Made by a program: the position numbers and the translations under genes. 64,000 bases of DNA from Mobula birostris (lineage: Eukaryota), in contig NC_092400.1 in NCBI RefSeq assembly GCF_030028105.1, forward strand, positions 23,642,206 through 23,706,205, in the 5' to 3' direction. This document shows positions 21,948 to 61,438 of this stretch, one piece after another. Every line of letters begins with the position of its first letter. The first letter of the stretch is position 1. The notes beneath the pieces are model-generated. The model ran no database searches, was not told the DNA's origin, and saw nothing but the letters and a program-made list of their open reading frames with translations.

Positions 21948-21960
21948 ATGGCGTCGACGG
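21948..21960 (+). CDS. EWSR1: EWSR1 exon 1, coding part (MAST)
   Basis: aagATGGCGTCGACGG|gtaaga. Confidence 0.93.
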
Positions 21961-24900
21961 GTAAGAGCGAGTCTCCCAACTGTTGGGCTCGGATTCAAAC
22001 GCGCGGCCACCATCCGCCGTCCCGGTCGGCGGCGGGCGGGCCCTCGGACCGCACCCGCGCTCGCCCGCTGGTTTTTTCGCCGAGCTTTGAATTGGATTTA
22101 GCGGCGACTGTGGAGGTTTTATTGTGTGTGTGTGTGTCGAGGGCCGCGGTTTTATGCTCGGGCCAGGCCCCATCGCGTGTTGCAGGAGGAGGAGGAGGAG
22201 AAACGGGCGGGCGGCCGTTGGGGCTCCCCTCCCCTCCCCCCACCCCGCCGTCGTCAAGGCACAACCACCAACTCTCCCTCCACTGGCCGGCCCGCCCGTG
22301 CGAACTGCGCCACAAAGCCTTCGGGCCCGGCTGCTCTCACACACGAGCCGCCATCTCACTTCCCCAGCGGCCGGCTCCTTGCCCTTGGCTGCGCCGTCGC
22401 CCACTTTGCAGACGAAGGGGAAGTGTTTTTTTTTATGTGTTATCTATCCGTCTTGAGGCCTGGTCTGGATGGGGGGTGGGGGTGGAGGAATCAGATTGGC
22501 CAACGACCGGATTTCAATAATTAAAAAATATCAGTTCGTAACTACGGTCAAAATAGTTTCCTTGGAAATATTTTAAGATTGAAACTGTGTTCTGTAGATT
22601 CTCATTTTAAATGATGGCGGTGTAGATTTTCAGTTTTTTAAAGTGCCCCATTTTGAGAATGCGCGTACAGTTCAAGAAGTTGAGTTGTGTTTTATTTCGG
22701 CCTTTATTTTAAAGAAAGTAGTGGTTCCGTACGCGACAGCGGTTTGCCAAACTGGAGCCGTTCATTGGTCAGAATTTAATTTTTCTTCGTAGAAAGGCGC
22801 GATATGACAATAGTTTGAAAGGCAGCTAGATTACTGACATGCTTATCTTTTGCATTTTGTTAGTTTTTTTTTGTTTTGGGGATGGTGCTTTAGACGTCCT
22901 GAATTTGTTAAATGTTATTGAGGATCATGTTATTAAAGAAGCGTACCAAGTGTGTTTTCGTTCTTCCGTTGAAGTTATCCGGTGAAATTTTAGCACTGGG
23001 TTCCTAACATCTCGTAATAAGCTAATTTCTAAGATAATATTAACTGCGCTTTTTAAAAAAATAATTAGATTTCCTTTTCCTTAAAATATCCACACATGAT
23101 TCCTTTAATCTGAAACTTGAGTTTTCCCTATATGCAATTTCTCCATCATTGTGGAACCTTATTTTTAAAACCTCAGAGCCCATCACATATGATCAGTATA
23201 AAACTTGTCAATCTAATATTGTCTGAAATGTGTGAAAAGTGTAGCATGTGTTATTTCTTTGGACAGGCACTTCAAGAGTTCTCCACCATTGTGGAGGCTT
23301 AATCGTTTTTTATAATCTCAGAGCCCAACAGAGCTGATCAGTATAAATTTGGTCAATATAGTGTCTCAAATGCTATTGTGCGAAAGGTATAAACAGAAGT
23401 TTTATTGTGAGAAAGTTTAATTTTATATTATGCTCATAACAGAATGGTCTGGAGACAGAAGCTGTCACTTTGCTAAAATTCTGACCTAATGTAGCTTGAC
23501 CTCTTGTCATATGCCTCTATTTTTATTAGATTAAGATTAGGGTTTTTTACTTTTTCACACACCTCTTCTTGCGGTGTTGTTAATGATTGGCAGTTCAGAT
23601 TTCAGTATTGACACTTGGAGTGACTTTTTGTTAATATAAATGGTGTGAAAGGTGACACTAAACACAAGTCCCCTACTTGACTGAAATTGAGTGACAGATT
23701 AGTCGGAAGGAGGTAACAACCACTATATTTTAAAGTAATTGCTTGCCCTAGATGTGGACATTTTGAGAATATCTCATATAGTAAGCAAACCAGTTGACCT
23801 TACTGTCTTGATCTGGTGAGAAAGTTGGTCTTTATGGAAAGAAATAGCAAAATTTTGAAAGACTTGGCATTGTCTTTGGAAAGAGAAATGTTCAGATTTT
23901 TGGGTCTTTACTATTCATTAGATCCAAAAACCTTGCTGGATTAAAATTTTTATTTCCTCCCCCAAGCAAAGCTTTTAAAAAAATTAAACTGAATGAAGAT
24001 TTCGCTGTCTGAATCACTCGAAACAACATATTCACTAGAAATGGAGAAGATACTGATTTATGTGTTTGTTTACTTTTGTATGTCTTAACCTTTTCCTTCA
24101 GTGTGGGAGGAAACGCTAAGAAGTGCACACATAGCATTTACAATACGTTTATTTCTGAAACAATTGATTTAGGGCTTCAGTTATCACATACATTGCAACA
24201 TCAATGATGTACTTTTGCTGACCTTTTTCTCTTGCAACATTCAAATGCCTACAATTGTGAACACATGTTAAAACTGATAAAGTGAAACCATTTTCTTAAA
24301 TATGAACAGTTCTAAAGTACTCATTTGTTTGAAGGTGGAAGTGTTCCATCTTTTTTGCCACATTTTATAAATAAGGAATTAAGCTTGATTGAATTGCATG
24401 TTTACTTTCATTGATATTGTTCACCATAGCTACAGAAAATTACCAAGTAATTTTGGGAATAAACTGATAAACCAAGCTTCCAGATGCAGGCCTTGATTAT
24501 GGGTTGTGATGCTATCCCATTTTCCACAGTAGTGAATTTTTTTTTAGGAAAGCTGTAGCTTTTTCAATTGTCATACTTTGTCTAAATATGTAGTTTCTGT
24601 TGCGCATGGTTGCTCCAATCTTGTGTGGGGTGGGGGAATTGCACATGCTACAAACTTTCTCCACAAATGCTGCCTAACTTGCATTCCTAACATTTTCTTT
24701 TATTTTAACCTGATCTTTAATGGCAATTGCATTTGATGAATCTCATCCCCTTATATCAGAACGATGCAAGAGTGTAATCACTGTCCAGAAACCAACCTCA
24801 GACTTTTCCAGAATAGTTGCCTCACTTATAATAACGTTTAGGGATTTTTAACCTCTATGAAAATAAACTATATACAAAATGCTTGTTCTTTTTTGCATTT

Positions 24901-27900
24901 CAGACCATATTGTGTCACATTTTGTATATGGCACCTCATCCCCTGGGTAAGGGTACTTGTGTATTTCAATATTGCTGCATCATCCAGGGGTTGACTAAGA
25001 ATGCCCAGCTGTATCATAAAGATTTAAATTACATTACCTGGAATACAAACAATTTTTTTGTAAAATCTATTTTACTTTATTTTTCTTTTCAGATTATAGT
25101 ACCTATACTCAAGCTGCAGCTCAGCAAGGGTAAGTGTATCTGATGGACTTTATCGGAAATTTCATTGGTTGTCATGTCTTTGAAAATCGGTCTTTGGTTT
25201 CAAGTACTCAAGTAATGGCTTATATTTTCTAATTTAAAAATTGAAATAGATACAGCTTGTATTGTAATTATTAGGACAAACTGAAGTTCTTAATATTTCA
25301 GATTCAAGCTCTCAGCTGGATGATGATGGGTGGGTGGCAGTGAAATTAATCAGTTTTCCAGATGTCAGAATTCATTCAGAATTATTTTGTATTAATTTTT
25401 GGAGTTGAGTACTTTGTCTAATTCAGCGGTCCCCAACCACCGGGCCGCAAGGAAACAATATAATTTGGCAATAGGAGTCAGCTGCACCTTTCCTCATTTC
25501 TGGACTTATTTCCTGGCAGAATTTACATATTACTATTTAATTATTTATGGTGCAACTGTAACAAAAACCAATTTCCCCCGGGATCAATAAAGTATGACTA
25601 TGACATTCCCTGTCACGCCCACTGTTGGGCTTGAATGCACGCAAGGTCATTACGCACGCGTCATCCATGTCAGCGCGGGAAGGAGATCAATGACGGTGGG
25701 CTGAAAAGTATGTTTGACATAACATCTCTGCCGGCATTCTGGATCAAAATCAGGACTGAATATCCTGAGATAGCTACAAAAGCACTGAAAACGTTGCGTC
25801 CATTTCCAACATACCTCTGCAATAAATACAACGAAAACTAAATTGTGGAATAGACTGGACATAAGGAACCCCCTTCGAGTATCACTGTCTTCCCATCACT
25901 CCTCAATGGGACAGTCTTGTTGCAGGAAAACAAGCCCAGGGCTCCCACTGATTCAGCGATATTGGTGTGTTGCAATGATTTTATATGTTCATACGGGGAA
26001 AATATGTGCTGTGTGTTTAATATTCAAATGTTACTTAAAATGTTATGATACTATTGACTTATATAACCATATAACAATTACAGCACGGAAACAGGCCATC
26101 CCTGCCCTTCTAGTCCGTGCTGAACGCCACTGTCACCTAGTCCCACCGACCTGCACTCAGCCCATAACCCTCCATTCCTTTCCTGTCTATATACCTATCC
26201 AATTTTTCTTTAAAGTATAATACCGAACCTGCCTCTACCACTTCTACTGGAAGTTCGTTCAACACTTACTTCAAACTCCCCGTCCTCCCCTGATAATTGA
26301 CTTATCACTATATTCATGCGAGGAAAATATGCGCTGTGTGTTTAATATTAAGTTCGTTAGATAAACCCTTTTAGAAACGAATGTATTAGCCACTTATCAC
26401 CTATATTGCGTTGGTGATTAACACCCCCCCCCCCCAATAGCAGAATGGCCAAAAACGATTTGTAGGAAAAAATTGGCACATACAGGCATGCGCACTGGTG
26501 CCTGCACAAGGCTTCATGGTCATTGTAGTCTTTCTCGGGGGTAAACTCAACGTATTTGACTGCTACTCTTGTTCGTTGGCAACCCTAACACCCCCCCCCC
26601 CCCCCCCCCCGGCCCTGGTCGGCCGGTCCGCAAGAATATTGTCAATATAAAACCGGTCCGCAGTGCGATAAAGGTTGGGGACCCCTGGTCTAATTCACAC
26701 CATTACCCATACTTGATATTCATATTGTACTGTTCCATTTTCAAACATGGTTAAGCCCCTCTAAATGTTTTGTGTCACCCCCTAAAGGAATAGCCAAAAT
26801 CCATTGTAAATATTATTGTAAATTTTATCTTTTAAATTCAATTTCGCTTTTACATGTGGCTGAGGTTTGGAAAAAACAAGCTGTAAACCACTTGTGCCAT
26901 TAATTACTTTAAATACTTTAATTACTTTACCTTAAAGAATAGGTAGGGGTGCATTTTTTAACAACTAATGGAGCATAGATCTGGGTGAAGCAGCTAATCT
27001 CTAATATTTTGGTAGCTTGGGTATTCCATGTGCTTCATGACAGATGTTCTTGTCATGGGCATTTCTTGTCCCCAGTTTTCCTGAAGAGTCAAAGTAATTC
27101 CTGATACCAGCTAACTTGTGAGCACCATTTGGTTTGTACGGCTTTATCTGTGGGTAGGTTAGATGGACTGTTAATATTTCATGTAGCATTAACTAGGCCA
27201 TTGCAATACTGGAGAATTTAACCTACATAAGTGAAGCTATGCAATAAGAGGCTATATTTCTATACAGATGTCCCCCACTTTACGAAAGTTCACTTTACGC
27301 CACCTCACTTTTATGAAAGACCTACATTAGTACCTGTTTTCACTAACCGAAAGAAATCCGAAGAGGATTTTTGCTTTTACGGAAAAAGGTGAAAAGCGAA
27401 AATAGTGTTCAGCGTTTGTTTTGCAGCGAGCTGTTATAGAGGCAGCGTGCGCCCCGAGCAGTGAGAGTGGCGAAAAGTGAAGCTCCTTCCCTGGGAACTA
27501 CACTCAGCTTCAAGCCACCATAGTTTTGAACTGTGTGAGATTTTCACTACGATTGACAGTGCTGCAATGATTGCAGAAAAGTATGACTTTAATTTTGAAA
27601 GGGCACGTAGGTTTAGGGCAGGTTTGCAGGATGTTTTGAGTGCTTACAAAGAACTGTATGAGTGTGCTCGCTGTCTTCCTGATTCTGGTAAGTGGAACTA
27701 CACTACATTATTTCTACTTTATGTAGGCTGTGTATTTATCATATCATTCCTGCTTTTACTATATGTTAGTGTTATTTTAGGTTTTATGTGTTTTGATAGG
27801 TTATTTTTTGGGTCTGGGAACGCTCAAAAATTTTTCCCATATAAATTAACTTTACGCCATTTTGGCTTATGAAAGGTTTCATAGGAATGCTCTACTTTTG

Positions 27901-30900
27901 GATAGCGGGGGGAACCTGTATATCATTTATCTAAAATATCAATCAGGCCTCCTTGGACCTTTTCACCAAGACAGTTGATGTCTTGTTAAAATGTGGATAA
28001 AGTCAGCCATTCGTGTATACTAAATGTAAAAGGTACGCTGTTATTTGAATAACTATGACTTTTACATGCAGTGTACATTTCTTGAAGTGACATCCATCCT
28101 TCAGTGATGATCAGATCCAGGATGGACAAATTTCCATTTGGTACATGCAGACAAATTCTATATAGCAATTCTTCTTGCAGTGCCAACTTGGTTATTATTG
28201 TGGTCATCTGCTTGAAATATAAAGAAATTCCTCCTCTGCTTCCAGATCAAAAGTTGAATATAAGTAAGAAACTGTATTTAAGTGCAAATTAATTGGGAGC
28301 AGACCCTAGGTGCTGAATGCTTCATAAATTGTTGAAGGTATTAAGTGTTTGCCTTGTTTTTAAACACATCTTCCCACTTTCTTAGGTTCAGCTAAATTAT
28401 CTTTTTGCAGAATAGTTTATGTATTAATTGAATTGTGCAGGTCTGCTTATAGTTACTTTAATCAGTGTATTAGAAGTGCCATTTTGCACAAGTTGTGAAA
28501 TTGGCACTTTCTGATACACTTAGTTGATTGGGCAGCATTTGTGGAAAGTGAATTGAGGTTACTGCTGGGAACTAGGAAAGAGGTGGTTTAATGTTGAGTT
28601 GCAGAGAATGTTATGGTATGAATAGCATGAATGGAGTCTCTAGGTAAGACCAGTACTGCTGTGGGGATAAGTTATTGAGGTCATTCAGTTGGTGGGTAAA
28701 TTGAAGCTTTTCAGTGGGAATGGAACAAAGCCATGAGAAGAGGGCATTTGAAGAGAGAATAGACAAAGAAACATGATTAGATGAGCAGTACAAGGATGTG
28801 GAAAGGACTTCTTTTACTTGCCTCATTTTGTATCTTTTGGTTAATTTTGTTTAATTTTCAGTGTACAGTTTGGGTAACGGAAATTTGCCTTTGCAGAATT
28901 CATAAATCACTAAATATCGACTTTGTGAGGATAAAAAAAAACAAATTAACAAAATGTGGGGGGGGGGATTGTTGCATTAGGGAAAATAGTGATTCTGTAA
29001 TATGTAGGAGCAGAATTGGGCCATATACTTCTCTGTTCAGTCATCGCTAATTTATTTTCCTACCTCTACATGTAACATTTGACACCCTTACTAACCAAGA
29101 ATCTATCTATTTCTGCTTTAAACATACCCAGTGACTTGGTGTCCACAACCATATGTGGACAGAAAATCTGCGGATTCACCACCCTCTGGATAAAGAAATT
29201 CTTTCTCATCTCCGTTGGAAAGGGATGTTATTTTATTCTGAGCCTGTACCCTCTGATCCACATGCACTCTATCCAGGCCTATCAATAGTCACTAGGTTTC
29301 AATGAAATCCATTGTCCTTCTAAATTTCAGCAAGTACAGGGCCCTGTGCAATGAATTGCTCCTCAATCATTAACCCTATCATTCTTGCAAACCACCTCTG
29401 GAACCTCTCCAACACCAGTACATCCTTCCCTAGATATGGGACCCAAAACTACTTGCAATATTCCAAATATGGTCTGACCAGCACCTTACATAACCTCAGT
29501 GTTACACCTTGTTTCTGTAATCTAGTCATCTGAAATGAATGCTGACTGATTTTTACCTTCCTTGCTACCAACTCGACCTGAAGGTTACTCTTTAGGAAAT
29601 CCTGAACTAGGACTCCTAAAGTCCCTCTACGCTTCCATTTTCTGAATTATCTTCCCATTTAGAAAATAGTCTAGCCAATTAGAATATTTATTCCTTCTAC
29701 CAAAGTGCATGACCATACACTTACCTACACCGTATTCCATCTGCCACTTCTTTGCCTGTTTTCCCAACCTGCCCAAGTGCTTCTGCAGATTTGTTTCCTC
29801 AGCGTTACTTGCCTTTCCATCTGTATCAACTGGAAACTTGGACACAAAACCATCAATCCTGTCATCAGATTATTAGCATATAACATGAAAAGTAGCGGAC
29901 CAAGCTGAACTGCAGAAAGTCAGAAGGGGCCCCCTTTATCTTCTATCTATGCTGGTATGTTTGCTTTCATACCTTGTGCTTCTGTTTTCAAGCCTTGTGT
30001 GGCATCTTGTTAAGGCCTTCTAAAAATCCAAGTATATAACCTTTATTGACTCTCCATCTCTTGGCTTGAATTTGATTAGCAATTCTGACACCTTTATCAG
30101 ACAAGATCTCCCCTTAAAGATATCGTGCTGACTTCTATTAATTTTATCGTGTATTCCAAGTGTCCTGAAGCCTCATCCTTAATAATATCAACCACTGAAG
30201 TCATTTTAACTGGTCTTTTTGCCTCCATCCCTTAAAGGGTGGAATGACATTTGCTGTTTTCCTGTCTTGTGGAGCCGTTCCTGACTAGTGATTATTGAAA
30301 GATTACTACTGTCTCCCAAATATCATCTACCTCTTTCAGAACCCTGTGGTCCAGGTGACTTGTCTACCTATTAACCTTTCAGCTTCCCAAGCACCTTCCA
30401 GTAATGGTGACTACACTCACTTGTGCTCCCAACTCTCAAATTTTTGATGTGTTGCTGGTGACTTCCACTGTGAAATTTACAAAATACTCGTTCAGTTCAT
30501 TGCCCATTCATTTGTTCCCCATTGCAATGCCCAATTTTATTCTTATACCTGAAAAATATTTGTATACTCTACATTATTGGCTTTCTTACCTTCATATTTC
30601 ATCTTCCTTCCCCTGTTGCTTTTTAAAAGCTTCCCAATCCTCTGATTCCTTGCTTACAATGTTGCAAAAAAAAAAAAGCCCTCTATTGCTTTCATGCTGT
30701 CTGACTTCCCTTGTCAGCCACTGTTGCCTCTAGAATGCTGCTGCTGCTTTGGGATCATGCTGTTGCTGCTCTACCATGACCCCTGATTAGGGTCCCTTCC
30801 AATCAACTTTGGTCAGTCCTTTTTGTGCCTCTGTAGTAATACCAACATGTCTGATTTTTTTTTTTTGCTTCTCCCTCAAACTGAAGGATGAATTCTATCA

Positions 30901-33900
30901 TATAATCACTGCCTTGAAGGGTTCCTTTAGTTCTCTTATCAAATCTGGTTCATTGCACAACCTTGAATGAAAAATTGCCGTTTCTCTAGTGGGCTCAACC
31001 ATATGCTGTTTTACAAAGCAATCTAGTAGACATTCCTTCTCTTAGGGATCCAGTGCCATTTACCTTTTCTGATCCCTGTTCTAATTTGTAACCTACATTG
31101 TGGCAACTATTCAGAGGCCTGTATAAGATGCATCAAAGTCATCTTATCCTGCAGTTTAACTCCACTCATAAGGATCTTCCATTTCTGATCTTGAGTCACT
31201 TCTTGCTAAGGGTTTTATTTCATTTTTAACACCCCCTGCCTATTTGTTTTTCTTTCAACCGGCGACTCTGCCCAGTGTTACACCTGCCAATACCAGCAAC
31301 TTTCTAGGAATTCAACTGCTGCGTAGCCTGAGGATGTCACTTCAACTTGCTCTCATCTGGTGACTACAAACCTGGTTGCAAGTCTCTTTACCTATCAATT
31401 CCTCCCCTGTCTTCTGCAATTCAAAGCAACTCGTTTCCTCTCTTTGCCAACTTTGACAAAAGGGGTCTGAGATTATTTGTATCTTTTAAGCAATGTGAAC
31501 ACACTGTATATCTTTGCAGGTATGGAACCTATGCGGCTCAGCCTACTCAAGCATATGGACAGACAACCCAAGTAAGATTTTGGCTCTTTTTTTTTGTGAT
31601 ATTGTATGTTAATTTTGAAGCCTTAAGTTTTAAGAATGTTGATAATTCGTTGAATTTCATTGAGCTTTAGCTTTTTGTGTATTGTTCCTTTATAACTTGA
31701 ATTCAAATAGGCATATGCGCAGCAGAGTTATGGAGCCTATACTCAGCCTACTGATACAACATATACTCAAGCACAAACAACTGCAGCATATGGGCAGACA
31801 GCATATGCCACTGCATATGGGCAACCCCAGACTGGTAAGGGTTAACTTCTGTTAATTTTTTTAATTTTCATTTAAATTCTATGATTAATTCTTATCTTTT
31901 TGTTTTGCTGTCTGTTGTGCTTTCTTGAGTAGAAGGGACAAGTGCAGGTTAGAATGCCTGGTTGTTGTTGCATGGTTCATGTTGGCATTTTACATCAAAC
32001 ATTTGAAACTTCAATATAAAATTAACTGACTTGTCATGCATGCTCAATATTGTGATTAGACTGTCCTTGATGTTACAGGGAAAGAAATAATTTGCCCTTG
32101 AAATTAATTTTAAATTTTAGATTGGCTGGCATTCAGCCAATTATGAAATTTATACACAGTCCTTTGCTGTATATATGTACAGGTCCAAGACCAGCACAAG
32201 TGACAGCTGTTTAGAAAGGCATAATTTACCACTTGGGTATTTCTCAGTGTCAGCAAGTACAACTGGTAAATCTTCATTTGGCCCATTATACAAATTATAT
32301 TCTAGTTGTGACTGATTAAAGTTTAGGAGTGACCAGAATTTATCCTTTTGAGGTGTTATCATGAAAGGTTATGTTTCTAAACATTGCCTGAATTAAAATG
32401 CATTTATTAAAAGGTTAATTGTATTGACTACATAACACTGAGTTAGAAAGGTGTGGCAATGTGTTGAATTCACAAGTTGAATTTGAAAAACATTAGTTCA
32501 ATTAACGTTGATGGGGAAGTTCTTTTAGCCTTCTTGCTATTGCAAAATTGACTTTAGTTAAAGAAGTGTACTGACTTGGCTGAAAAAAATCTCCATTAAA
32601 TGTGCCCATTTCCTGCTTGTTATCAGAAAATGAAGTAGGCATGAGAGTAAAATGCATTTGAGCTCTGTTTTCTGAGACTATTATGTTGCAAAGTGGGGGG
32701 TGTGCTGAAGTTCCGATTTCAGAGCATCTCTGGCTCATGCATGCAAGGATACTGGGGTAGCAACTTTGCTATCAGATACATTGTACGCTCTCTGTGGGGG
32801 GAAGTGACAAATCATATTAAAATTTCAGCTGCATTGGGCATTTTTGTAACGGCTTTAAAATACTGGGAGATGCAAGTAGAATCCTGCTTCCAAGCTTGTA
32901 TATCATCTCATTGATTTCAGTAGTGCGAGTCCGGTATTGCAGCATTTACTTCTTAAGTCTATGGGTAAAACAAACATTTCCTAATTTATCCTTAATTTCG
33001 GGCCAGCAAAGCACTTCACACATTTTATGTCTAAAGGCATTTTTTTTAATCAAAAGATGCTAGTTGACGGGTCTGGTGCTCATTCTAGTGAGCATGAGCA
33101 ATTAGCAATATGTTGAATTAAGTCTGCATATAAAACTATTGTAGAAATGTTAGTACATTTTTCTTTTCAATAGGTTATAGCGCACCAATTGCGCCTCAGG
33201 CTTATAGCCAGCCTGTGCAGGCTTACAGTACAACTGGATATGACAGCACTGGTACTCCACAAGCTACGTATGGTCAACAGCCAACCTATGGTCAGCAACC
33301 CACCTATGCTGCATATGGGCAACACACAGCTACAACGGTTGCACCTACCAGGTATAAGTCAGCTGTTTTATAGCTTGCAGGGAAGGTGTGAGAAAGGTTT
33401 TTATATTATAAAAAACTCCCGGAGTCTGTACATACTGTGCCAACGAATTATGCATGACTCATTGTCACTGGAACTCCTAATTGCTTAAGACCATATTCTG
33501 ATTTTAATTTGGGGTGAATGAGTATTGAATTCTTTAAATGAATCATAACCTGGATAACTTATTTTGGCTATATTTAATATTTTTGGGGAAAATAGAAAAA
33601 TGTAGACTTTTCCTGGCACACATGGCTTTTAGTGACTTTAGGTAAGATGTTACTTATTCAGTAATTTGTCTTAGAAAAGGTAATGTTGAGAAATTTGCAT
33701 TTATGTGGTTCCCTATGATTAGAGCAGCTTCATTACTGCTAAAGAAGGCTACTCAAGTGTTTGCCCACTGGCAGGAATCACAGTTAATAATTTTTAGAAA
33801 ATTTCAGAAGTTGGAAGCCTGGACAATTGTGTAAATTTATTTTAAATCCAGCTTTGTTAGATATTGCATAATCCAGTTAGATTTTAAACATGTTCTATCA

Positions 33901-36900
33901 AAATACAAAGTTATGTATATTTTCTGTCTTTAATTTCCTCTAACATATACCATTTTTGCTCTTTATCTCTAAACACCACTCTTTTGTCCACCCTGAGTCA
34001 ATAGTAACTTTGTATGTAATTTATAATTGCTGACTTAAATTTCAGAGCACAAGATACAACCAAGCAAGATGATTACAGCCAACCAAGTACTGGTTATGCG
34101 CAATCTAATGTAGGATACAGCCAAACGAATTATGGATACCCTCAAATGAGTGTTCATGGAACTTATCCTCTTCAACCTCCCAGTGCTCCCCCATCTTTTC
34201 CTCCTACAAGGTAATTGTTTCATTTCTGATGTGATGTGAGGAAATGGATTTTCCAACATTACCCCAAATTCTTTCTCTTAATGATAATGTTTTGAAGGTT
34301 GACAGGTGTGTTTCTGCCCAACTGTCATATTTAAGATGAGAGAGGATGTCACATTGTTGGTAGAAAATGTACAATAAATAGTTTGGTGCCTTAAAACAGG
34401 AATTATTTCTCTCCCAAAACATTTTTTAAACTGCATTTGGGCAGTAACTTAAGTCATTGAGAGGGAGAATTTTGCGTTCTTCAGAGGATCTATTTCAGTG
34501 CATTATTTTGTATGTTTTAAATCTGTCATACGAGTTTGTTTCTTAAAATCCTTCAAATACATTTTGCTACTATTTCAATGTTAAATGTTTTTAGCTTGTG
34601 TATTCCATATTTTAACCCTTTGAAACAAATTTGAGTTAACTTTATTTTCAAGCTTGTGACCTTTGGCTATCGCTTGCCATCATTTTTTTTAATAGTTACA
34701 GTAGCACCACTCAGCCAACTGCCTATGATCAGAGCTCTTACAGCCAGCAGGCAAGTTATGGACAACAGGGGAGTAGCTATGCACCACCACCACCCCCAAC
34801 TGGAGGATACAGCCAACAGCAACCACCTACAGGGTTTGGTCAGCAGTCTAGCTATGGACAGCAAACAGACTATAGCCAACAAAGCCAGTACAGTAAGTTT
34901 GACTTTTGTATGTTTTGGTAAAATAGTGCTAGTAGTATAAGTCACTTTGAAATTAAACAGTAACAGGCAACAAAGAAGCTAATAGTAGAATAAATTTTTT
35001 TTTGAAACTATTTTTTGAATTATTTGGGTTAAAATCCAGGCCAGTTGTAATGGAGTTGGCCAGGCCCATATTGTGCTTGATGCTTATCCTAAATTTCCTA
35101 ATTATTGCCCTCAAATGTGATTAATACTAGTAAATTAACCAACAAAATGCTTATCTAGGTTCCTATAGGCAGGAGCAACCATCTACTAATAACATGAGTG
35201 GGTATGGACAAGACCAGAGTAGCTACGGAACCTCAAACAGTAGCTCTGAAAACCGTAGCAGAAGTCGTGGAAGCTATGATCAAGGAAGCAGAGGAAGTAG
35301 TTACAGTAGAGGTGGTCGGAGTGGACGAGGTGGCATGGGGTAAGATGACCTCTTCCTTTTGGAGAGATTAATACAAGAAATCACCCAGAGTAACAGTTAA
35401 CAATACAGGGCTGAAAGCATTTAGCTGATTTGAAAGTACTGTAACAAAAATAACCTCTGGGTTTAACTGGCCACTTTCCCAAATAACTCATTGGAGTTAT
35501 CAGGAACTAGATGTCCCCAAATGAGAAGTTTGCTTTTAAACTTTATATCTAAATTAATATAGATTTTAATTTTTTAAATCCATGGCCCATTAAAATCTTT
35601 GTCCGGGAATTTGTGACGTGAAATGATTACAGTTTTCAGCCCTGCTAATTTTCCAAAGGCAATGTCTAGCCTCTGTGGAATAGTTTGCTTTATCTTAATT
35701 TCCACTTATATAATGTAAAAGAAATTTAGATAAACTATAGATGTAATTTTGATTTGCTTTGAAATATGCATCTGGCAAATAAAATGTGGGATTTTGTTAA
35801 AACCTTTGAAACTAATTTGAATTGGTTGTCCTACGCTATGTAAATTTGAGGGAGGTTAACTTAAAACGTAGTATTTGCTCCACATAATATGACATTGCCT
35901 TCCTGGTGAAACCTTTAATCCTGAGATAAGTTGTGTTAAATTGTCCTTCGCTTTCTCTTTACATATTGCTACCACATAGGTGAGAATATTAATGTGTTTT
36001 GTTACAGTGTTTATATTTTGGAGTATCTCTCAAACATCACTACATCAATCTCATTAGTATTTTGGAAAGGGCATTATAGTCCCTTCCACCTACTTCCAGA
36101 ATTAAAATATTTTGCAATGGCAAAATTATGGGGTGTGAAGTGGAACATCTTATAAATTTGTAATTATTTGGAGCCTGGATTCATTTTTAATAATCGTGCA
36201 TTTATTTTATGTTGGTGTAGGCTTTGCTTTATGCATATGCCATACTTCATTTGAAAATCGATGTAGCAATTTTTGAAAGTTAGACTCCTTGTGGCCAGTT
36301 TTATTTTTGTTGCTAACACTCTACAAATGCAGAAATACAATTGTTGCACTATAATTTAGGAGAATATGATAAAGGTTTCACTTCAACGTCTGGAAGTTAA
36401 CTTGACTATTTTAAGTTAATGGGGTTTCCATTTGCCTGGTACCTACGATATTTATATTTCTGAAAAAATGTGAATAACGTGAACCATTAATTTACTTGAA
36501 TTTAAATAATTCCCGTACAATTACCTAAAAATAGAGGCAATGGAAACCCTATAGTCATTGCGTTTAAAGACTCCATTGTACTTGTTTACTAATCAACAAG
36601 GGAGCTGAAAGCATTATCGGGTTATGCCTTGTAATAGGCAGGGTCAGTGGAAAGTAGGAGTTATTTTACTAGTGTTCAATTTGAACTTGCCAGTAAGGGT
36701 TTTAAACAAGTATCACTTTAAATGGCGCCTTGTTCAAAAATGACTAATTTGAGTACAATCATTGTGCAACTTCAAATGAGCATTTTTTTTAAAGTCCCGA
36801 AACAACTGTAGTGATTTACCAATGCCAAATTTGTTGAAAGTAAATATCACCCTCTGTGTGTGAGGGCTATTTTAAATTGCTTGTGGGTTGAGTGTTTGTA

Positions 36901-39900
36901 CCCTGTGTGTTCTGCCATGCCATTACAAACTCTAGTCCTTGTAAATGACCAATTTCAATCAAAGGAGCAGTTGGCCTTAATTTACTTGGGGTAGACAGGG
37001 GGAATGTTTGGCTAGTATTTATTTTACTCGGCGTCCCTACTGTGACTAGGGGCTGTAAGTATATGGGACCAAACAGACTGCTTGAATACCTGTCAAACAT
37101 TGCCGTTGAACTTTGTGTGAAGAATGACCACTTGGATGCTGCATCAGAAAACTACTGATACTAATGGAGTCTTGTCCCACAATAGATAATTGATCTCCCT
37201 TTCTGAAACAATCTTGTGGATGTTATTCCTATCATTAAAAAACTAGCTTTTTTTTTCATGAGAGCACTTACTGAGAATTGAAGTTCCATATTTGCATTTG
37301 ATGGGTACAGATACTCTGATTCCACTGACCCTGGCAACTTTATGCTACCTGGTGGTCATTAGTATGTTATCATCTAAGAGGTATTCTAGTGACTCTTAGC
37401 CTCCTCATTAAATGCAGTTTTGGCACTTGAGTGGATTGGGTAAATATTTCAAATCTGTGCTACATCCCACCACACACATTTTTGTGTTTTACTGTAACTG
37501 CTAAAGTGCTATGAAATTGTAGTAATTGGGAATCCACAAGTTGCCAATACAGCATTCAAAGCAAAGGTAAGTATCCTATTTTTCTATGTACAAAGGTACA
37601 AAAACTTGAAGTAGATCTAAACTTGGATCTGAACGTGCCTGTAATTCCTCATTTCTATTCATTTTAATGAAGACACAATTGGGTGTGTCTTGGTATCCTT
37701 CCAAGTAAAGGAAGCTTGGTGTAATAAATTAATAATCACTGTTTAATTGCAACACCTTTTTTTAAAAAATCCATCTGACGGGCATGTGGCAAAACAGCTT
37801 AGCTTGTCATATTAATGACCGTACTGACAATGCTGTATTTAAAACAGACCAGTTTGAAGTGTTGGTAACATGGATATTTAAATATAACCTACTGGGCTGT
37901 TTTTAAAAGAACATTCATGGGAAAATGGATGGATGGTGTGTGGTTGAGCTGCAAGCAGCTAAAAATCTCTGGGCTAAGCAGAATTAGCCTGCACCAGAGA
38001 GGGGTAGGAGGAATCAGCTGGAGATTTCACTCTATCATATTGGGAACATGTTAATGTTACCTATGGAGCAAAAGAGGTTCTGCTCTGTTAGTCTTTTATG
38101 GTTAAGCAGTTTTCCCTGCCATAAGTAGTTACTTCAGTGAAGTCCACAGCACTTATGGTCTGTACCCAATAAAACTTGAAATAGGGTGAAACTGCTCACA
38201 TTTTTCTCCCTTCATAAATTATCCATTTGATTAGTTTTTGAGTTCGGAGCAAGAATAATATTATTATTATTATTGGGCACCACAGTGGCATAGCTGTTAG
38301 CGTGAAGCTATTACAGCTGGAGGTGTTCTGTGCTTTAGAGTTCAATTCTGGTGCTGTTCTGTAAGGAGTTTCTGTACCTCCTCTCTGTGGTATATGTGGG
38401 TGTTCCCCGTGTGTTCCAGTTTTCTCAGTCCAAAGACATGCTGGATAGGTTAATTAGTCATTGTAAATTCTCCAGTTATTAGGTTAGGGTTATGGGGTTG
38501 CTGAGATGGCATGGCTCAAAGGGCCAAAAGGGCCTACTCTGTGCAGTATCGCTAAATAAATAAAAATAATTAAACAAATAAAATACTCTCGTGAGTACAG
38601 CTAAGATATAAAATTGTGCCTTTACTAAATATTCACAAATAGTTGGTCAGCACTATTTCAAAACTATCCTCTACTGGTATCATTTAACTGACCTATACCT
38701 GTACAGTCCTATCCAGGATTTAAATCTTTGAATGTTTGATAGTACAATCGATGCACAGTTACCTGTTCCTACAGCTTTTTAAATGCAACTTGGGTTCAGG
38801 GTCTGAAATCCTCAATGTATTTTCTTAAAATCATGCAGTGGGTGGAAAAATGTACTACTTAATGGTAACTTGATTGTAAGGAATTTGTTGAGGTGCACAG
38901 ATTGACAATCATTGACATTGGCGATACAGTCATTTGCTCATCTTGTGTAAAGATCCAAGTCTGCACTGGTGTCTCAAACTAAAAGTCAATATAAAATGAA
39001 GTACTACAATTAGGCTCTGCCTTTTTTGCAATGGAATTTTGAAGTTCACACTGCTGGGCCAGCGTTAGCATTTAGTTTTGTGATAAATTTGTTGACCATG
39101 TGGCTGCTGTATTTTGGGTACTTTACAAGATATTAACAAAAAGCATGTGATTGATCATACCATTTTCCCTTTCGGAATAAGGTTTTTCGTCCTCCTGATG
39201 ACGGGATCATTTCCTCACCATTGACCCTTTCTTAAATTTTCAGTTTAGGTATAGGTTTAAATGTTTGTTTTTTTAAACTTCTAATTATGGGTAGAACTAT
39301 GACTAATGTTTAAGCAGGAAAGATGAGTGCAGAGCTGTCTGGCTTTATAATAGCTAAAATTTAAATCGGTAGAAAACTATGGTTGGGTGTTGAGGGGTTA
39401 GCTTGCTTTTTATTGGGTTGAAATTTGTACATGTTACATTTAAAGGTTGGGGTGGGTATTTCCTGTTGGATTTGGAAATGGTCACACTTGTAAATGTTTA
39501 GTCAGGAAGTGAGGAGTTTACCATTTAAACGTGTTCTTTGGAAGAATTTAACTGTACAGAGCCTAAGCAGTACGATACTGCTTTCACTCCCTTGTTTGCA
39601 GGTAAGTATTAGAATGTAGTTTTTAATAATGCCAATACAGTATTTATTTTTAAATGCTTGAATATGGAAACTATGTTAACATGCTTTGTCGCATTTATAT
39701 GCTACAGGTTACAAAGTGAGAGCCTTGTTTACACTTCAATACTTTAAACTATTTTGACTGAGCCGGCAGCATATTGAAAAGTGGGACTAGACACGTTTTC
39801 TACATATGTATGGACAAAAAAATGTGTATGGTGTATGCAAGTGGAGTAATACATAAAAGCATGGTATTGTACACTTGTAATGTAAACATGGTATTTATTA

Positions 39901-42900
39901 TTTACAGTAATATGTAATTTATTTGGAAGTTTAAAAAATAATGTAAAACTAGTATAATGGTTGCTTAACAGTTCTGTTATAAAACTGCATGCACCAACTT
40001 TAGTTGTTGAGACCCTGTTACTGGCAAGTCAAACAGTGAAGGTGTAAATGGTTTTTGAGGGTGTACGAAAGATTTAGGAGAACTACTATGAAGAAAGGCA
40101 AACTCGCAGATGAAAACTGGTGAAACTTCAGAGGCCTTAGCCAGTGCTTTTAAAGAGGCACGAGTTTCATCTTTGAGCCTTAGGCTCAACTGGTACTGGC
40201 ATAAGGGATGCTTCATTTCTTCATATTTGTCCCTGCAGCGGTGTCGACCGGGGTGGCTTCAGTAAGCCTGGTGGTAAGTTTTTAGTATTAAAATGGTTAG
40301 TCAAATACATCGTGTTTGCAGTCTGTGATTTGGGGAAGACTTTTTGCATAGTAAAAAAAAAAATAACCTCTATACAAAATTCAACACTTGTGTCAACTGC
40401 CGGCATTAAAGTGGGCTTGCGTTAAAATGGGTCTCAAATTATGTGATACAGTGATGAATATGGATGTATCATTTGAGTGATGGGTTTTCCAATAAAAATG
40501 GGTTTCAAATTACCTGAGGCTGGTGATGACTAGAAAACATAGAAGTGAGTAAAGAGAGGGGTTTACGTTAAAATGGGTTTCAAATTCATGAAGACAATGA
40601 TGTATATGGAAAGTGACAAACCACGCAAATGAGGTGGTATAAAATACAGAATGGTTCACTTATTAGAAAATTAAATGGGGGAATTTTTAAAAGTAAAACT
40701 GTAGTTTTAAATTTTTACTGAAGATTTTCATATGGTATGGTCTTGCATTTGCAGTGCATCTCAGTTGAATGAGTAACCAAAAAGAAAGGTGCCGGAATTA
40801 TAGATCTAGATGTGTAAAGGTAGTGGTTTGGTGGAATGCAAAGTAATGTCATTGTTGCTTTTTCTCTCCATCCAGTACCAGCTGTAGAAGAAACTCCAGT
40901 GGCTGAACCAGGTAATGATTTTTAATGATAGGATACAGCTATACTCGGTCACTTTTTCTATATTTTTGTAATGCTCATTTCTTAAGGTAAAAAATTGGCC
41001 ATAATCCTGAATCATGAAACAGGATCAATGATGATTTTTCTGTTAACTGAAGGTCTGTAATGCTTTCCACAGTTACAGCAGCTGAACCTCCACCTCCACC
41101 ACCGGCTCCGGCTCCAGTTCCAACCCCAACCTCGACCGCGACTTCAGCCCCACAGGACGATGTGGAGAATGATACTATTTATGTGCAAGGTTTGGGGGAA
41201 AATATAACTCCAGAAAGACTTTTGGATTTCTTCAAGCAAACTGGTGCTATAAAGGTTTGTGTTGATGTGTTTTGTTGAGAGATTGTTTTTAATGGGTTTT
41301 CGAGTTTGATGATAACTTTTGCACTCTTGCAGAACAACAAACGAACTGGACAGCCTATGATCAACATATTCATTGACAAAGAGACTGGAAAACCCAAAGG
41401 TGAAGCTACTGTGTCATACGATGACCCTCCTGCTGCTAAGGCTGCTGTGGAATGGTTTGATGGTAGGTCTTCATCAATTTTTCTATGATGAAGAAAGTAC
41501 GACTTCATTCGTGTGGCAGCAATAATTTACATTCCCTTCCAACTTTAGGCAAAGAATTTGACGCAAACCCAATCAAGGTTACTATGGCCAAAAAGAAGCC
41601 TCCACCACAGCCCTTACCCCAGCTGCAGCAGCCGCCACCACCACTCTCATTTAACAATATGCGAGGTAATGTTCCCCTCCGCGATGGTAGAGGTGGTGGG
41701 CTTCCTAGAGGAGGAGGTGAGAATCTACATTACAGACCAGGTAATGCTATTTTTGCTTTTCTGTTTTAGACGAATGGTGTGAATTTACTCCATTTACATT
41801 TATGCTAACCTTTTTGATTCAGTGTCCTTTTCCTTTTTTTTAGAACTGATTTGCAGTATTAGGGGGCAGGAGTGCTAATCTGGATTATATTCATGCATAG
41901 ACACCTTTAATAAATGTTTGACTTATGTTATTTGACTATATCATTTGTAACATGATTCATAATGCTGGTCTTTTGTCCCCATCAGTTAATTATGGAGAAA
42001 ACATGAAATTTTTATTGTGAATTTTTTCTGCTGCCTGAAGTATGCATGTTCCCTGGCTTTAATTTCAGGACCTATGGGCCGTGGCGGTGGTGGAGGAGGA
42101 TTTGGAGGCCGAGGTGGCCCACGTGGCCGTGGTGGGCCTTCTGGGGGAAATACACAGCAAAGAGCTGGTGACTGGCGATGTCCTAACCCGTATGTCAAGC
42201 TTGGTTTGAGCATTTTATTTGTCTTTTTCCATGATTCTGGTAGCAAAAGTGAATAGACAATGCATATTTTTATTTTTAGAACTTGTGGAAATTCTAACTT
42301 CGCCTGGCGGACTGAATGTAACCAGTGTAAGGCTCCAAAGCCAGATGGCCCTCTCCCACCACCATTCCCTCCAGGTGAGTTAATCTCTGTCAGTCATAAA
42401 TTATTTTCATTCCATATTGCAATTAATGGAAATTTCTGGTCCTGTTTTTGCAAAATTCTTTTGAAATACTTAAAAATCGTAAACTTGAATTCTACTGATT
42501 TCATCCAATTTGTATAAATTGTGTTAAAGGCATATTGCTCCTAGAATTGAACATGTAAACTTCCAAATTCTTCTAAGGAATATCTTGGACTGATTTGAAT
42601 TCCATAGGTGATCGTGGTCGAGGTGGTCCCATGATGCGTGGTGGCCGTGGTATGGACCGTGGGGGTTTTAGGGGAGGCCGAGGTGGAGACCACCGTGGTG
42701 GCTTCCGAGGAGGACGTGGTGGTGATCGAGGTGGCTTTAGAGGTGGAAGAGGAATGCTTGGAGGACCCCCAATGGGAGAATTAATGGGTTTCAGAGGAGG
42801 ACGTGGTGGACCAGGAAAATTGGATAGGAAGTAAGTTAATCAGTGTTTAACATTGTTGCTAGAATATTTTCTGCAAAGATGTGCAATTAGTTTGACATGC

Positions 42901-43053
42901 AACCAGTTTCCTTTCAAAACTGCCCTCTGGTAGAAGGACACCTTTAATTTCCTGTAACTCCATCTTGTCTTACGACAATTTTGTCAATTGCTCATGGACT
43001 TTCTTCTTCTTAGGGGTGATCGTCGCCAGGACCGTCGGGAGAGACCATATTGA
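21948..43053 (+). CDS. EWSR1: RNA-binding protein EWS (FET family), complete, 17 coding exons, 658 aa
   Basis: join(21948-21960,25093-25129,31520-31571,31711-31834,33174-33351,34046-34210,34696-34892,35159-35339,40239-40273,40876-40911,41073-41254,41333-41462,41549-41716,42069-42189,42280-42374,42608-42830,43014-43053) = 1977 nt, all GT-AG and in frame. Contains the MASTDYSTY N-terminus, SYGQ-rich low-complexity domain, RGG boxes, RRM, RanBP2 zinc finger and C-terminal PY-NLS. Synteny with RHBDD3 and GAS2L1. Confidence 0.96.
23139..23390. repeat. Degenerate two-copy tandem duplication, period about 140 bp
   Basis: Collinear blocks ttctcca.cattgtgga (23139, 23279), ctcagagccca, tgatcagtataaa, tgtct.aaatg. 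Confidence 0.75.
25093..25129 (+). CDS. EWSR1: EWSR1 exon 2
   Basis: ttttcag|[13 protein letters not shown]|gtaagt, 37 nt. Confidence 0.95.
25424..26687 (+). mobile_element. hAT-Charlie (Charlie3/MER1-like) deletion derivative carrying LINE tails
   Basis: TIRs CAGCGGTCCCCAACC / GGTTGGGGACCCCTG; perfect 8-bp TSD GTCTAATT (25416-25423, 26688-26695); hAT dimerisation-domain remnant [20 protein letters not shown]. Confidence 0.92.
27265..27918 (+). mobile_element. Tigger/pogo-like non-autonomous DNA transposon
   Basis: TA flanks; imperfect TIRs cagatgtcccccactt / tagcggggggaacctg; C-terminal remnant [26 protein letters not shown]. Confidence 0.75.
28998..31250 (-). mobile_element. Heavily decayed CR1 LINE in EWSR1 intron 2
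   Basis: Minus-strand remnant [22 protein letters not shown]; collinear with 7600-10017. Confidence 0.85.
31520..31571 (+). CDS. EWSR1: EWSR1 exon 3
   Basis: tttgcag|[17 protein letters not shown]|gtaaga, 52 nt. Confidence 0.95.
31711..31834 (+). CDS. EWSR1: EWSR1 exon 4
   Basis: aatag|[10 protein letters not shown]...YGQPQT|gtaagg, 124 nt. Confidence 0.95.
33174..33351 (+). CDS. EWSR1: EWSR1 exon 5
   Basis: caatag|[16 protein letters not shown]...APTR|gtataa, 178 nt. Confidence 0.93.
34046..34210 (+). CDS. EWSR1: EWSR1 exon 6
   Basis: tttcag|AQDTTKQ...APPSFPPT|gtaatt, 165 nt. Confidence 0.93.
34696..34892 (+). CDS. EWSR1: EWSR1 exon 7
   Basis: aatag|[18 protein letters not shown]...SQY|gtaagt, 197 nt. 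Confidence 0.92.
35159..35339 (+). CDS. EWSR1: EWSR1 exon 8
   Basis: tctag|SYRQEQPS...[11 protein letters not shown]|gtaaga, 181 nt. Confidence 0.92.
38275..38565 (+). mobile_element. tRNA-derived SINE in EWSR1 intron 8
   Basis: A/B-box-like head, gtccaaagac body, (taaa)n tail. Confidence 0.75.
39708..39790 (+). other. EWSR1: EWSR1 intron-8 alternative terminal exon (coding part 39708-39747: [12 protein letters not shown])
   Basis: Acceptor gctacag, in frame with exon 8; the peptide matches my recollection of the human short EWSR1 isoform C-terminus ([12 protein letters not shown]...). Confidence 0.75.
40239..40273 (+). CDS. EWSR1: EWSR1 exon 9
   Basis: ccctgcag|[11 protein letters not shown]|gtaagt, 35 nt. 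Confidence 0.94.
40412..40618. repeat. Three degenerate ~73-bp tandem repeats in EWSR1 intron 9
   Basis: aaaatgggt(c/t)tcaaatt at about 40424, 40495 and 40570, each followed by a (g/a)tgatg motif. Confidence 0.75.
40876..40911 (+). CDS. EWSR1: EWSR1 exon 10 (divergent, [12 protein letters not shown])
   Basis: Strong pyrimidine tract ending ccag; donor CAG|gtaatg; 36 nt, phase 1-1, at the expected position. Confidence 0.8.
41073..41254 (+). CDS. EWSR1: EWSR1 exon 11 (Pro-rich linker and RRM start)
   Basis: ttccacag|...[12 protein letters not shown]...FFKQTGAIK|gtttgt. Confidence 0.92.
41333..41462 (+). CDS. EWSR1: EWSR1 exon 12 (RRM)
   Basis: [43 protein letters not shown], 130 nt. Confidence 0.96.
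41549..41716 (+). CDS. EWSR1: EWSR1 exon 13 (possible alternative donor at 41740)
   Basis: ctttag|[19 protein letters not shown]...RGG|gtgaga. Confidence 0.88.
42069..42189 (+). CDS. EWSR1: EWSR1 exon 14 (RGG2 and ZnF start)
   Basis: PMGRGG...[12 protein letters not shown]|gtatgt. Confidence 0.94.
42280..42374 (+). CDS. EWSR1: EWSR1 exon 15 (RanBP2 ZnF)
   Basis: [23 protein letters not shown]...|gtgagt. Confidence 0.96.
42608..42830 (+). CDS. EWSR1: EWSR1 exon 16 (RGG3)
   Basis: DRGRGG...GPGKLDRK|gtaagt. Confidence 0.95.
43014..43053 (+). CDS. EWSR1: EWSR1 exon 17, coding part (PY-NLS)
   Basis: cttag|[15 protein letters not shown]. Confidence 0.95.
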
Positions 43054-56035: not shown

Positions 56036-56868
56036 ACGTATTCTCTCAACAATCTTAGCAATTCTCCATAGAAATTACCATAGCAGCGGTGGGATCACTC
56101 TCCCAATTTAGATAGCAATCCTGGGGTATTTGCAAAGGAGGGTTTTGCAGGGTTGGCTCGGTTGTGAGTGACTTTACCTTGGCCATATTTGTTGGCTAGG
56201 TGGACAATGGGCGCTCTGTCTAGTATCTCTGATAAGCATTGCAGTTGTGATGTAGTGTAGTTGCAACAGATACAAGATGCTGGGCCACCTCAGGAGGCTT
56301 CTTAAAGTCAACCACAAGAAGTCACATGCTATGCCAGGTAAGGATGGATGATTTCTTCCTTTCCAGGACATCGGTAAACCAAATAGGGTTTCATTACAAT
56401 TGAGATATCTTCACGTGGTCAGTGTGTCTGGTTGACATTTCTCCCAGAATTCAAGAGTATTAACTGGCTTTTAATTCCACACTGGTAGTGATGGGATTTG
56501 AACTCACACCGATAATTATTTGTCCAAATTTCCAGATTACTAATCTGGTAATTTAACCTCCACACCACCATCATTACCTTATAAATATCGTTGTTTCCTC
56601 AATAAATGACTATTAATGAATAACTGCCTGCTATTTCTCTTCCAGCCCTACAATGCAGCCAACATCCTAAGTGATCCTGAAAGTAAGAAATTCTGCTTTA
56701 AGTTAATAAAAATATTTACTGTGCTCAATCTTCAGTATCGTGTTACAAAAGGGAACGCCAAAATGAGTGTTAAGAAAAAAAAAATCGAAGATCTGAAAAG
56801 AAGAACATTAATCAGTCTTCAGCTGCCTAAATATATAGAAAATGTTTTTACATCCAACAGCCTCTCAG

Positions 56869-60149: not shown

Positions 60150-60826
60150 CCCTGCGAATGTGGGCGGAGGTCCGGGGTGGGGGGGGGAAGTGGTCGGTTT
60201 CCATGGAGACAGAAGTAGTCAGGATATAAACAGAGACCCAGCTGGGAGAGAAAGCTTGGCGAAAATAATGGAGCAACCGGAAACCTGGCGCTTCCACCCG
60301 GAGTGCGCAGGGAGCGTGAGGGGTGCGAACGGGCGCAGCGGAGAACACGCCGTGCGGGCTACCGGGCCGCGTACTCGATAGGATGGGCAGTCGGTAAAAG
60401 AGTTTTTGCGCTTGTGTGCGGCTCGCCAGGTGGGTCGCTGTCTGGTTCGCTGGGAGGCGGGTGCTCTGCTCTTCCGATGCGGAGGGAGGAGGGAGTCACG
60501 GGTGGGGGATGGAAGTCATCTGAGAAGAAACTAGTCATCCCTGGTCAGGGCTCCATCTGAGACCGGCCGGCGCGGCAGTCGGGAAGCGTGGACCGGAGAG
60601 GCTCACAGCGCGATGGGAACAGACCGAGAACGGCACTCAGCGGGCAGAGAGAGAGGCAGGAATCCATCCGAGCGTCCAATCTGGAACTAACCCTCGTTGT
60701 GCAAGGACGGGGGATATTAACCGGGGCGAATCACCTGAAGCCCGGGTTGACACAGCAATTTAAAGGGGAAGGAGCGAGGAGCGCGGACGAGTTACAAGGG
60801 GAGGGGCCGGCGGCTAGTTGAGGAAT
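60150..60826 (+). promoter_or_regulatory. GAS2L1 CpG-island promoter and 5' leader
   Basis: CpG-rich; GC box GGGCGGAG about 60162; X-box GTTTCCATGGAGAC 60197-60210; TATA-like GATATAAA about 60222. Confidence 0.65.
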
Positions 60827-61438
60827 ATGGCGGAGCAGAAGAACATCCAGTCGGCGGCCAGCAAGAGTATCCGCCCGTTCAGATCCAGCGAGGAATATCT
60901 GTACGCTATGAAGGAGGACCTGGCCGAGTGGCTCAACGCCCTGTACGATCTGGACATACACGTGGACTCTTTCATGGAAACACTGGAGACGGGATGTGCT
61001 CTGTCCCAACACGCCAACAACGTCAACCAGACTGCCCTGGAGTTTGAGCACAAGTGGCCGGAGACGGCCGGAAGGATGAAGGTTCCCCGCAACGGGGTGA
61101 CTTTCGCCTCCAAGAACGTGCAGCCCGGCTCCTTCATCGCCAGGGACAACGTGTCCAACTTCATTGACTGGTGCCGGCACGACCTGGGCATCCAGGACGC
61201 TCTGATGTTCGAGACCAACGACCTGGTCCTCCGCAAGAACGAGAAAAACTTCGTGCTGTGCCTGCTGGAGGTGGCCAGGCGGGGGTCCAAGTTCGGGATG
61301 TTGGCCCCAATGCTGATCCAGATGGAGGAGGAGATCGACGAGGAAATGCGCGATGCGTTGGAAGAGCCGCTCGACGAGAAGACGTTCCGTCCCCGAGTCC
61401 AGAGGAGGTTGTGCGACTTCAAAAATCTGGACGCCATG
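60827..61438 (+). CDS. GAS2L1: GAS2-like protein 1, first coding exon (calponin-homology domain); gene continues beyond the window
   Basis: [37 protein letters not shown]...[17 protein letters not shown]...[27 protein letters not shown]-like motifs; in-frame TAG upstream; donor ATG|gtaaga; position downstream of EWSR1 favours GAS2L1 over GAS2L2. Confidence 0.9.

Follow-up and report, generated by a model that had tools for sequence, protein, structure and literature searches.

An alternative last exon in EWSR1 intron 8 shared by a cartilaginous fish, a teleost and human, with an early stop codon that is likely ancestral

The EWSR1 gene and retention of its intron 8

The window, a 64-kb stretch of Mobula birostris DNA, contains a complete FET-family gene on its + strand (Table 1). 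Exons 1–8 (21948..35339) amount to 947 nt with an open frame and with GT donors and AG acceptors throughout, and encode the SYGQ low-complexity domain and the first RGG; the GT donor of exon 8 follows position 35339 in phase 2. The gene shows the features of an EWSR1 orthologue, namely an RRM, a RanBP2-type zinc finger, RGG boxes and a C-terminal PY end, and the RRM_1 profile gave a match under the cut-off on one exon of 41073..43053. The RRM alone failed to separate the paralogues (scores of 222–300 against bony-vertebrate EWS and 279–291 against FUS/TAF15), whereas the N-terminus scored 358–458 against EWS proteins (frog EWS, 458) versus 176–208 against FUS-like proteins (frog FUS, 176). Judged from its sequence, the gene is the orthologue of EWSR1, the nearest named protein being the bamboo shark 'EWS-like' protein P0158. 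Within the animal's own genome, RRM searches returned three matches, this gene and two FUS/TAF15-like loci, and the candidate exon region returned one.

Table 1. Features of EWSR1 and of its intron 8 in the 64-kb window
Feature	Coordinates	Strand	Remarks
EWSR1 coding exons 1–4	21948–21960, 25093–25129, 31520–31571, 31711–31834	+	with exons 5–8: SYGQ low-complexity domain and first RGG
EWSR1 coding exons 5–8	33174–33351, 34046–34210, 34696–34892, 35159–35339	+	as for exons 1–4
Intron 8	35340..40238	+	4.9 kb; read-through reaches a stop immediately
CAG/GTAAGT site	39599..39607	+	106 nt upstream of alternative acceptor; 17/20 pyrimidines before it
Branch-point and 3′ splice-site region	39676..39707	+	best-conserved non-coding part versus teleost
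Predicted coding part of alternative last exon	39708..39747	+	completes Gly codon, 12 codons, TAA
Variable spacer	39748..39760	+	stop-to-block distance 16 nt here, 25 in teleost, 24 in human (inferred)
Second conserved block	39761..39795	+	3′UTR in window, translated in human
Predicted 3′UTR/poly(A) region	39791..39991	+	8 UGUA; non-canonical hexamers at 39848 and 39852, TATAAA at 39978
Block matching mouse 'downstream of APA' primer	40078..40100	+	17/23; 5/1000 shuffles in intron 8
Ordinary exon 9 (competing acceptor)	40239..40273	+	matches P0001, P0158; loose ends in X1, X12
RRM, zinc finger, RGG and C-terminal PY-end exons	41073..43053	+	tblastn with P0001, P0158

On either side of the gene lie a rhomboid frame (5655–6128, − strand) and a calponin-homology (CH) frame (60818–61657, + strand), 3 of the 24 frames scanned having given a match. 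We take this to be the human neighbour order RHBDD3-EWSR1-GAS2L1, with a rhomboid gene head-to-head upstream and a calponin-homology gene downstream. ARAGORN also called a 92-nt tRNA-Thr at 56482–56573 (− strand), possibly a tRNA-derived repeat. Ahead of the RRM, exon 41073–41150 encodes a linker rich in Pro, Ala and Thr; three shark proteins (P0001, P0158 and P0161) have this linker, and the bony-vertebrate EWS proteins compared lack it.

Intron 8 is retained in otherwise spliced RNA-like contigs. Part of 34700–40900 is contained in 22 runs, four of which (X1, X9, X12 and X16) were examined over 33950–39660 and taken as RNA from their splice joints, X9 and X16 coming from other organisms. All four carried the exon 6–7 and 7–8 joints and had next to no cover of introns 6 and 7, and in three of them (X1, X9 and X16) kilobase contigs lay over intron 8, including an X16 contig that continued from spliced exons 6-7-8 into intron 8 up to 38815. 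X12 had no intron 8 cover, which is a gap in cover and not an absence of retention. Loose ends at 35339 in X1 and X12, among the 24 loose ends listed, led to exon 9. A share of exon 8 depth without visible exit (31–43%, one bin, three runs) was discounted, as contig depths cannot show levels and the gap could come from an alternative junction or from an omitted intron contig.

The first 3 kb of intron 8 (35340–38280) was about 95% identical in X9 and X16, one intron 6 piece being 88% identical. For X16, substitutions numbered 144 in 3134 positions of intron 8 and 22 in 190 positions of an intron 6 piece (P = 1.8e-4), which is a single small control. The same 3 kb gave no alignment to the teleost locus described below. 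At about 38280–38560, many short outside contigs pile up on a repeat-like insert, at which the relatives differ by deletions.

An alternative last exon orthologous to that of human ntEWS

Inside intron 8, the AG at 39706–39707 would form an alternative acceptor. The original prediction had proposed that exon 8 spliced to this site reads through 12 new codons into TAA (39745–39747), which we reproduced from the sequence. The predicted short product, exons 1–8 plus the tail, is 328 aa long and contains no internal stop; it would lack the RRM, zinc finger and PY-NLS, as had also been proposed, the exons for these lying past the alternative exon. The second block (39761–39790) is in a different frame from the 12 codons and ends in TAG.

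The human ntEWS isoform (NM_001163287) is described as the product of an alternative last exon with intronic polyadenylation (PMC8364332). We compared the window with it through the ntEWS primers and amplicon sizes published in the supplement of that paper. The 'ntEWS reverse 1' primer, aligned by eye, agreed with 39712–39732 at 20 of 21 bases, the sole change being synonymous, and third codon positions in this first block were identical to human in six of seven cases. The ntEWS cloning primer, whose end coincides with the human stop, agreed with 39764–39790 at 26 of 27 bases by script, scoring 25 there versus 11 at the next best site in the window, and none of 1000 shuffles reached 25. Counted on three mammalian proteins, the human forward primer lies 128 nt upstream of the exon 8 end, so that 25 nt of the 153-bp amplicon and 91 nt of the 219-bp amplicon belong to the human alternative exon; the matching sites in the window lie 25 and 83 nt from 39708. 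The common 25-nt offset therefore puts the human acceptor at the same base. From the 91 and 83 nt it follows that the window exon is shorter than the human exon by 8 nt and out of frame with it, and since the greater human length is given by the amplicon sizes, the frame shift is real. By the same count the human exon has a frame of 29 codons plus stop; an open 29-codon frame closed by the second-block TAG is absent from the window, where TAA follows 12 codons.

On these matches, the exon at 39708 and the alternative last exon of human ntEWS are orthologues, but the former does not encode the human ntEWS tail. The two share gene, intron and acceptor base, both blocks are 95–96% identical over the primer sites, and the product, which in the window is predicted, would in each case be devoid of RRM, zinc finger and NLS. 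They differ in that the window stop comes after 12 rather than 29 codons, that its second block is untranslated and that its exon is the shorter by 8 nt. The homology to the exon of the human short isoform that had been proposed at the outset was thus confirmed by the two primers (20/21 and 26/27), and the placement of the second block past the stop and in a shifted frame was borne out by the frames together with the human amplicon sizes. The construct called 'ntEWS' in PMC10704431 is given there as residues 1–355 and is thus not the ntEWS isoform.

The teleost locus and the history of the stop codon

A metagenome scan returned 49 loci, of which L009 alone was a vertebrate genomic locus fit for use, L005 representing a spliced transcript from a fish. 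L009 is a genomic piece of a teleost ewsr1b in which the alternative exon precedes exon 9 by about 800 nt. Before the acceptor, 28 of 32 intronic bases were identical between 39676–39707 and L009 2057–2088, and BLASTN aligned 39676–39724 at 85.7% over 49 positions (E 1.6e-9), as against 67–77% for the coding segments of L009. The teleost TAA (2124–2126) stands at the same codon as the window TAA, and the preceding three codons encode the same residues in both despite three third-base changes. Near the exon start, L009 has a 2-nt deletion by which the homologous AG gives an immediate stop with no new residue; a second AG, 7 nt further on, gives nine residues in the old frame, four of the nine codons having altered residues relative to the window. 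Mismatches by codon position were 3:1:6 (P = 0.077), which leans coding-like. The second block was 16/30 identical, its first 10 bases 9/10, and the stop-to-block spacer measured 25 nt in the teleost and 16 nt in the window, both 1 mod 3, the human value of 24 being known by length only. Blocks downstream and upstream of the exon showed no conservation above chance against L009 (52 and 262 of 300 shuffles), and neither did most of intron 8 (76/100 shuffles).

The original prediction had placed the conserved element at 39708–39790. The acceptor and exon proved homologous, while the part kept best in all lineages, the acceptor and branch region, lies just upstream of that interval and the teleost second block is degenerate. 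We weighed whether the conserved sequence might be a DNA element, such as an enhancer, that overlaps a cryptic exon by chance. AR and FOXA1 are reported to bind near the human site (PMC8364332), but the conservation is centred on a sense-strand branch point, pyrimidine tract and AG at the human splice base, and we regard such an element as highly improbable.

The TAA and the shorter spacer could in principle be assembly errors masking a human-type frame, a concern already raised with the original prediction. The read cover examined ended at 39660, short of the stop, and does not speak against this. However, a TAA occupies the corresponding codon of the teleost locus, which is independent, so that the window stop is not an assembly error, and the explanation would need a base change and an 8-base loss together; we give it next to no credence. 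The early stop, shared by window and teleost, is likely ancestral. The second block would probably first have been 3′UTR and the 29-residue human tail a later read-through, by parsimony over three lineages without a jawless outgroup, the teleost being represented by one metagenome contig from a gene that is duplicated. The human tail is taken as the derived state because the early stop and the out-of-frame block are common to the cartilaginous fish and the teleost. In the ancestral exon, translation would accordingly have ended some 12 codons in, leaving the second block in the 3′UTR, and a one-base loss at or near the stop in the human lineage may have opened the frame through the block, adding 17 residues. 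The idea that an RNA sequence here outlasted a lost reading frame is thereby reversed. Conservation tracks in genome browsers presumably show the conserved block. In our literature search, which left most subscription journals outside its scope, we found no report that deals with this exon beyond mammals or with how its stop evolved; a conservation track is included in Fig. 5A of PMC8364332 according to its legend.

The new tail thus differs by lineage, with 29 residues in human (91 nt), 12 in the window and 0 or 9 in the teleost, depending on whether the first or the second AG is used. These states bear on whether selection acts on the RNA rather than on the peptide, as had been proposed: the second block is conserved while untranslated, which agrees with the proposal, but the first 12 codons keep the stop and three residues and show a weak sign of coding. 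It could be that the short protein itself is selected, as a low-complexity EWS with a fixed 12-residue hydrophobic end, cytoplasmic and perhaps of the germ line, which the RNA only serves; a degron or a PDZ-type ligand are ideas for such an end. The shared stop codon, the three residues kept through third-base changes and the teleost second AG, which offsets the 2-nt deletion by restoring the frame, would all suit this account. So would the human ntEWS protein, which is reported to have been detected, to be cytoplasmic and enriched in testis and to act in migration assays, and its exon-encoded tail, reported to raise migration of human cells from 6-fold to 10-fold (PMC8364332), so that the protein is not inert. 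Yet four of nine teleost codons change residue, the homologous teleost AG gives no new residue, human adds 17 residues over the old C-terminus, and the account leaves unexplained why silent sites and the untranslated block are nearly identical. The tail was also absent from 243 fetched proteins (best scores 26/54 and 24/53), a blank that counts as no evidence because the searches were weak: the exon 8 query gave 1/30 and 0/2 candidates, the mammalian N-terminal query 37/5158, and human full-length EWS was missed as well. We consider selection for the short protein unlikely.

At exon 9 of the teleost locus we observed a tandem TAG-CAG acceptor (L009 2891–2896) with an optional Ser, where the window has a single CAG; both forms occur among mammalian proteins (P0183 and P0030).

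Predicted 3′ end and proposed FUS control and attenuation of EWSR1

The interval 39791–39980 holds 8 UGUA motifs versus 1.43 expected, the highest count of all 190-nt + strand windows, for an interval chosen post hoc. UGUA is linked to cleavage factor Im. No AATAAA or ATTAAA occurred in 39790–40238, the teleost having an ATTAAA at L009 2301, and GU/UG content downstream was not raised over the rest of intron 8. The only UGCAUG in intron 8, an RBFOX-type motif, lies at 39986–39991; it is also contained in the mouse RIP and the human 'intron 8 forward' primers and was not found downstream of the teleost exon in L009.

In mouse, Fus knockdown is reported to lower a short Ewsr1 transcript ending in intron 8, FUS bound downstream of the site promoting termination and CPSF160 binding; the signal is AUUAAA (PMC4441052). 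The primers in the supplement of that paper mapped to the window in order, at 39586, 39775, 39971 and 40078. The second block corresponds to the primer just upstream of the FUS-promoted poly(A) site (23/25 over 39775–39799, with an exact 21-base run from 39775). The RIP primer matched at 15/25 (16/1000 shuffles), the 'downstream of APA' primer has a better-scoring chance site at 29900, and the 'alt exon 8' primer, which spans a CAG/GTAAG-like site, matched weakly (122/1000 shuffles in intron 8). The mouse site thus shares with the window the second block, two downstream primer sites in order and an upstream CAG/GTAAG, but it uses AUUAAA, whereas the window offers non-canonical hexamers and the UGUA cluster; the short mouse transcript is likened to the window exon by primer sites and may use the homologous acceptor.

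The CAG/GTAAGT site, behind a strong pyrimidine tract, is one of four of its kind on the + strand of the window and is not clearly present in L009. Used as an acceptor, it leads to an immediate stop. From its sequence context it could be the donor of a cassette exon, a second last-exon acceptor with a stop directly behind it, a site of recursive type, or a U1 site that protects the poly(A) signal. A cassette exon ending at 39601 was tried with 12 upstream AGs, all of which gave a stop or a shifted frame; the contigs showed no joint for such an exon, their cover being blank over 39298–39660. No conserved or unusually stable fold was found at the locus with Rfam, shuffles or the teleost. Rfam gave no matches at E ≤ 1 in 25000–52000, and fold stability of the conserved region was not unusual in any of six windows (z −0.72 to +0.74). 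Helices predicted between the first and second blocks and between the acceptor and the second block were no stabler than shuffles and were not repeated in the teleost; a 10-bp inverted repeat joining the mouse-matching block to the exon 9 branch-point region (40087–40100/40209–40225) arose in 64/500 shuffles and was likewise not in the teleost.

We propose that the exon at 39708 probably serves as an FET-family attenuation switch of ancient origin, by which EWSR1 messages are cut short. The proposal builds on the established homology, acceptor position, shared early stop and intron 8 retention, and predicts exon use, a poly(A) site in this animal and control by FUS. Exon 8 would be spliced to 39708 instead of to exon 9, and cleavage and polyadenylation would follow some 150–300 nt past 39708, diverting transcripts from full-length EWS. 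By extension from mouse, intron 8 would be removed slowly, the exon being one exit of a partly retained intron, and FUS, probably with other FET proteins, would bind there, stall Pol II and favour the early end, so that FET levels would feed back on EWS output. The reading is favoured by the teleost acceptor region, kept above the level of its coding exons together with the stop, by the near-identity of the untranslated second block to human while the tail differs among three lineages, and by the human primers and amplicons, the retention in three of four runs, the UGUA cluster and the mouse FUS data. Against it stand the missing canonical hexamers after the exon, the lack of intron 8 cover in X12, the outer blocks that are not conserved in the teleost, the coding-like codon pattern and the activity of the human tail in migration.

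A different use of the same acceptor would be as a decoy that slows intron 8 removal, nuclear detention being the control and the terminal exon a mammalian by-product. In favour of this, retention was the sole event observed at the RNA level, no other part is kept as well in the teleost as the acceptor region, the window lacks a canonical poly(A) hexamer, and in FUS mutant and null mice Ewsr1 intron 8 retention is reported to fall (0.32 to 0.18) as Ewsr1 mRNA rises (bioRxiv 2025.06.16.659513). A decoy would, however, have no need to keep its stop in place, the position of the UGUA cluster is that expected for the 3′ end of a terminal exon, and the human isoform is reported as captured in 69.2% of PolyA_DB samples (PMC8364332). 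As the whole explanation we judge it distinctly improbable; a decoy and an attenuation switch can both be true.

Sarcoma translocations break in EWSR1 introns 7 and 8, and ntEWS resembles the part of EWSR1 retained in fusion oncoproteins. More speculatively, and as a reading less likely than not, we suggest that in all jawed vertebrates the switch makes a fusion-like, low-complexity-only EWS whose short ancestral tail sets stability or partner, the human tail being a recent extension built from regulatory RNA after a single-base loss turned a conserved 3′UTR element into 17 new residues. If this were true, the tumour-promoting tail of human ntEWS would be a recent protein extension derived from regulatory RNA. 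Should the early exit prove as ancient as the jawed vertebrates, it would be a normal control point of FET dosage and no quirk of cancer cells. The three natural tail states (0 or 9, 12 and 29 residues) form a series for separating the RNA event from the peptide. The human isoform and its regulation by FUS in mouse are already known, and the surprise is limited because both are published; the evolutionary depth of the exon and the polarity of its stop were not found in our literature search.

Other FET genes offer a parallel. FUS introns 6 and 7 and the conserved retained introns of TAF15 (PMC7337901) are, like EWSR1 intron 8, long introns between the low-complexity domain and the RRM that are retained, but those two FUS introns are reported to be controlled by nuclear detention, whereas EWSR1 intron 8 additionally has a predicted spliced last exon. 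No sequence similarity was seen at two 3-kb FUS/TAF15-like loci (L003 and L004), which may not reach the matching introns. The intronic poly(A) sites of CSTF3 and PCF11 (PMC7471841) likewise give a deeply conserved early end, with feedback, in genes for RNA-processing factors; there, 3′-end factors regulate themselves, whereas the regulator of Ewsr1 is its paralogue FUS and the human product is translated.
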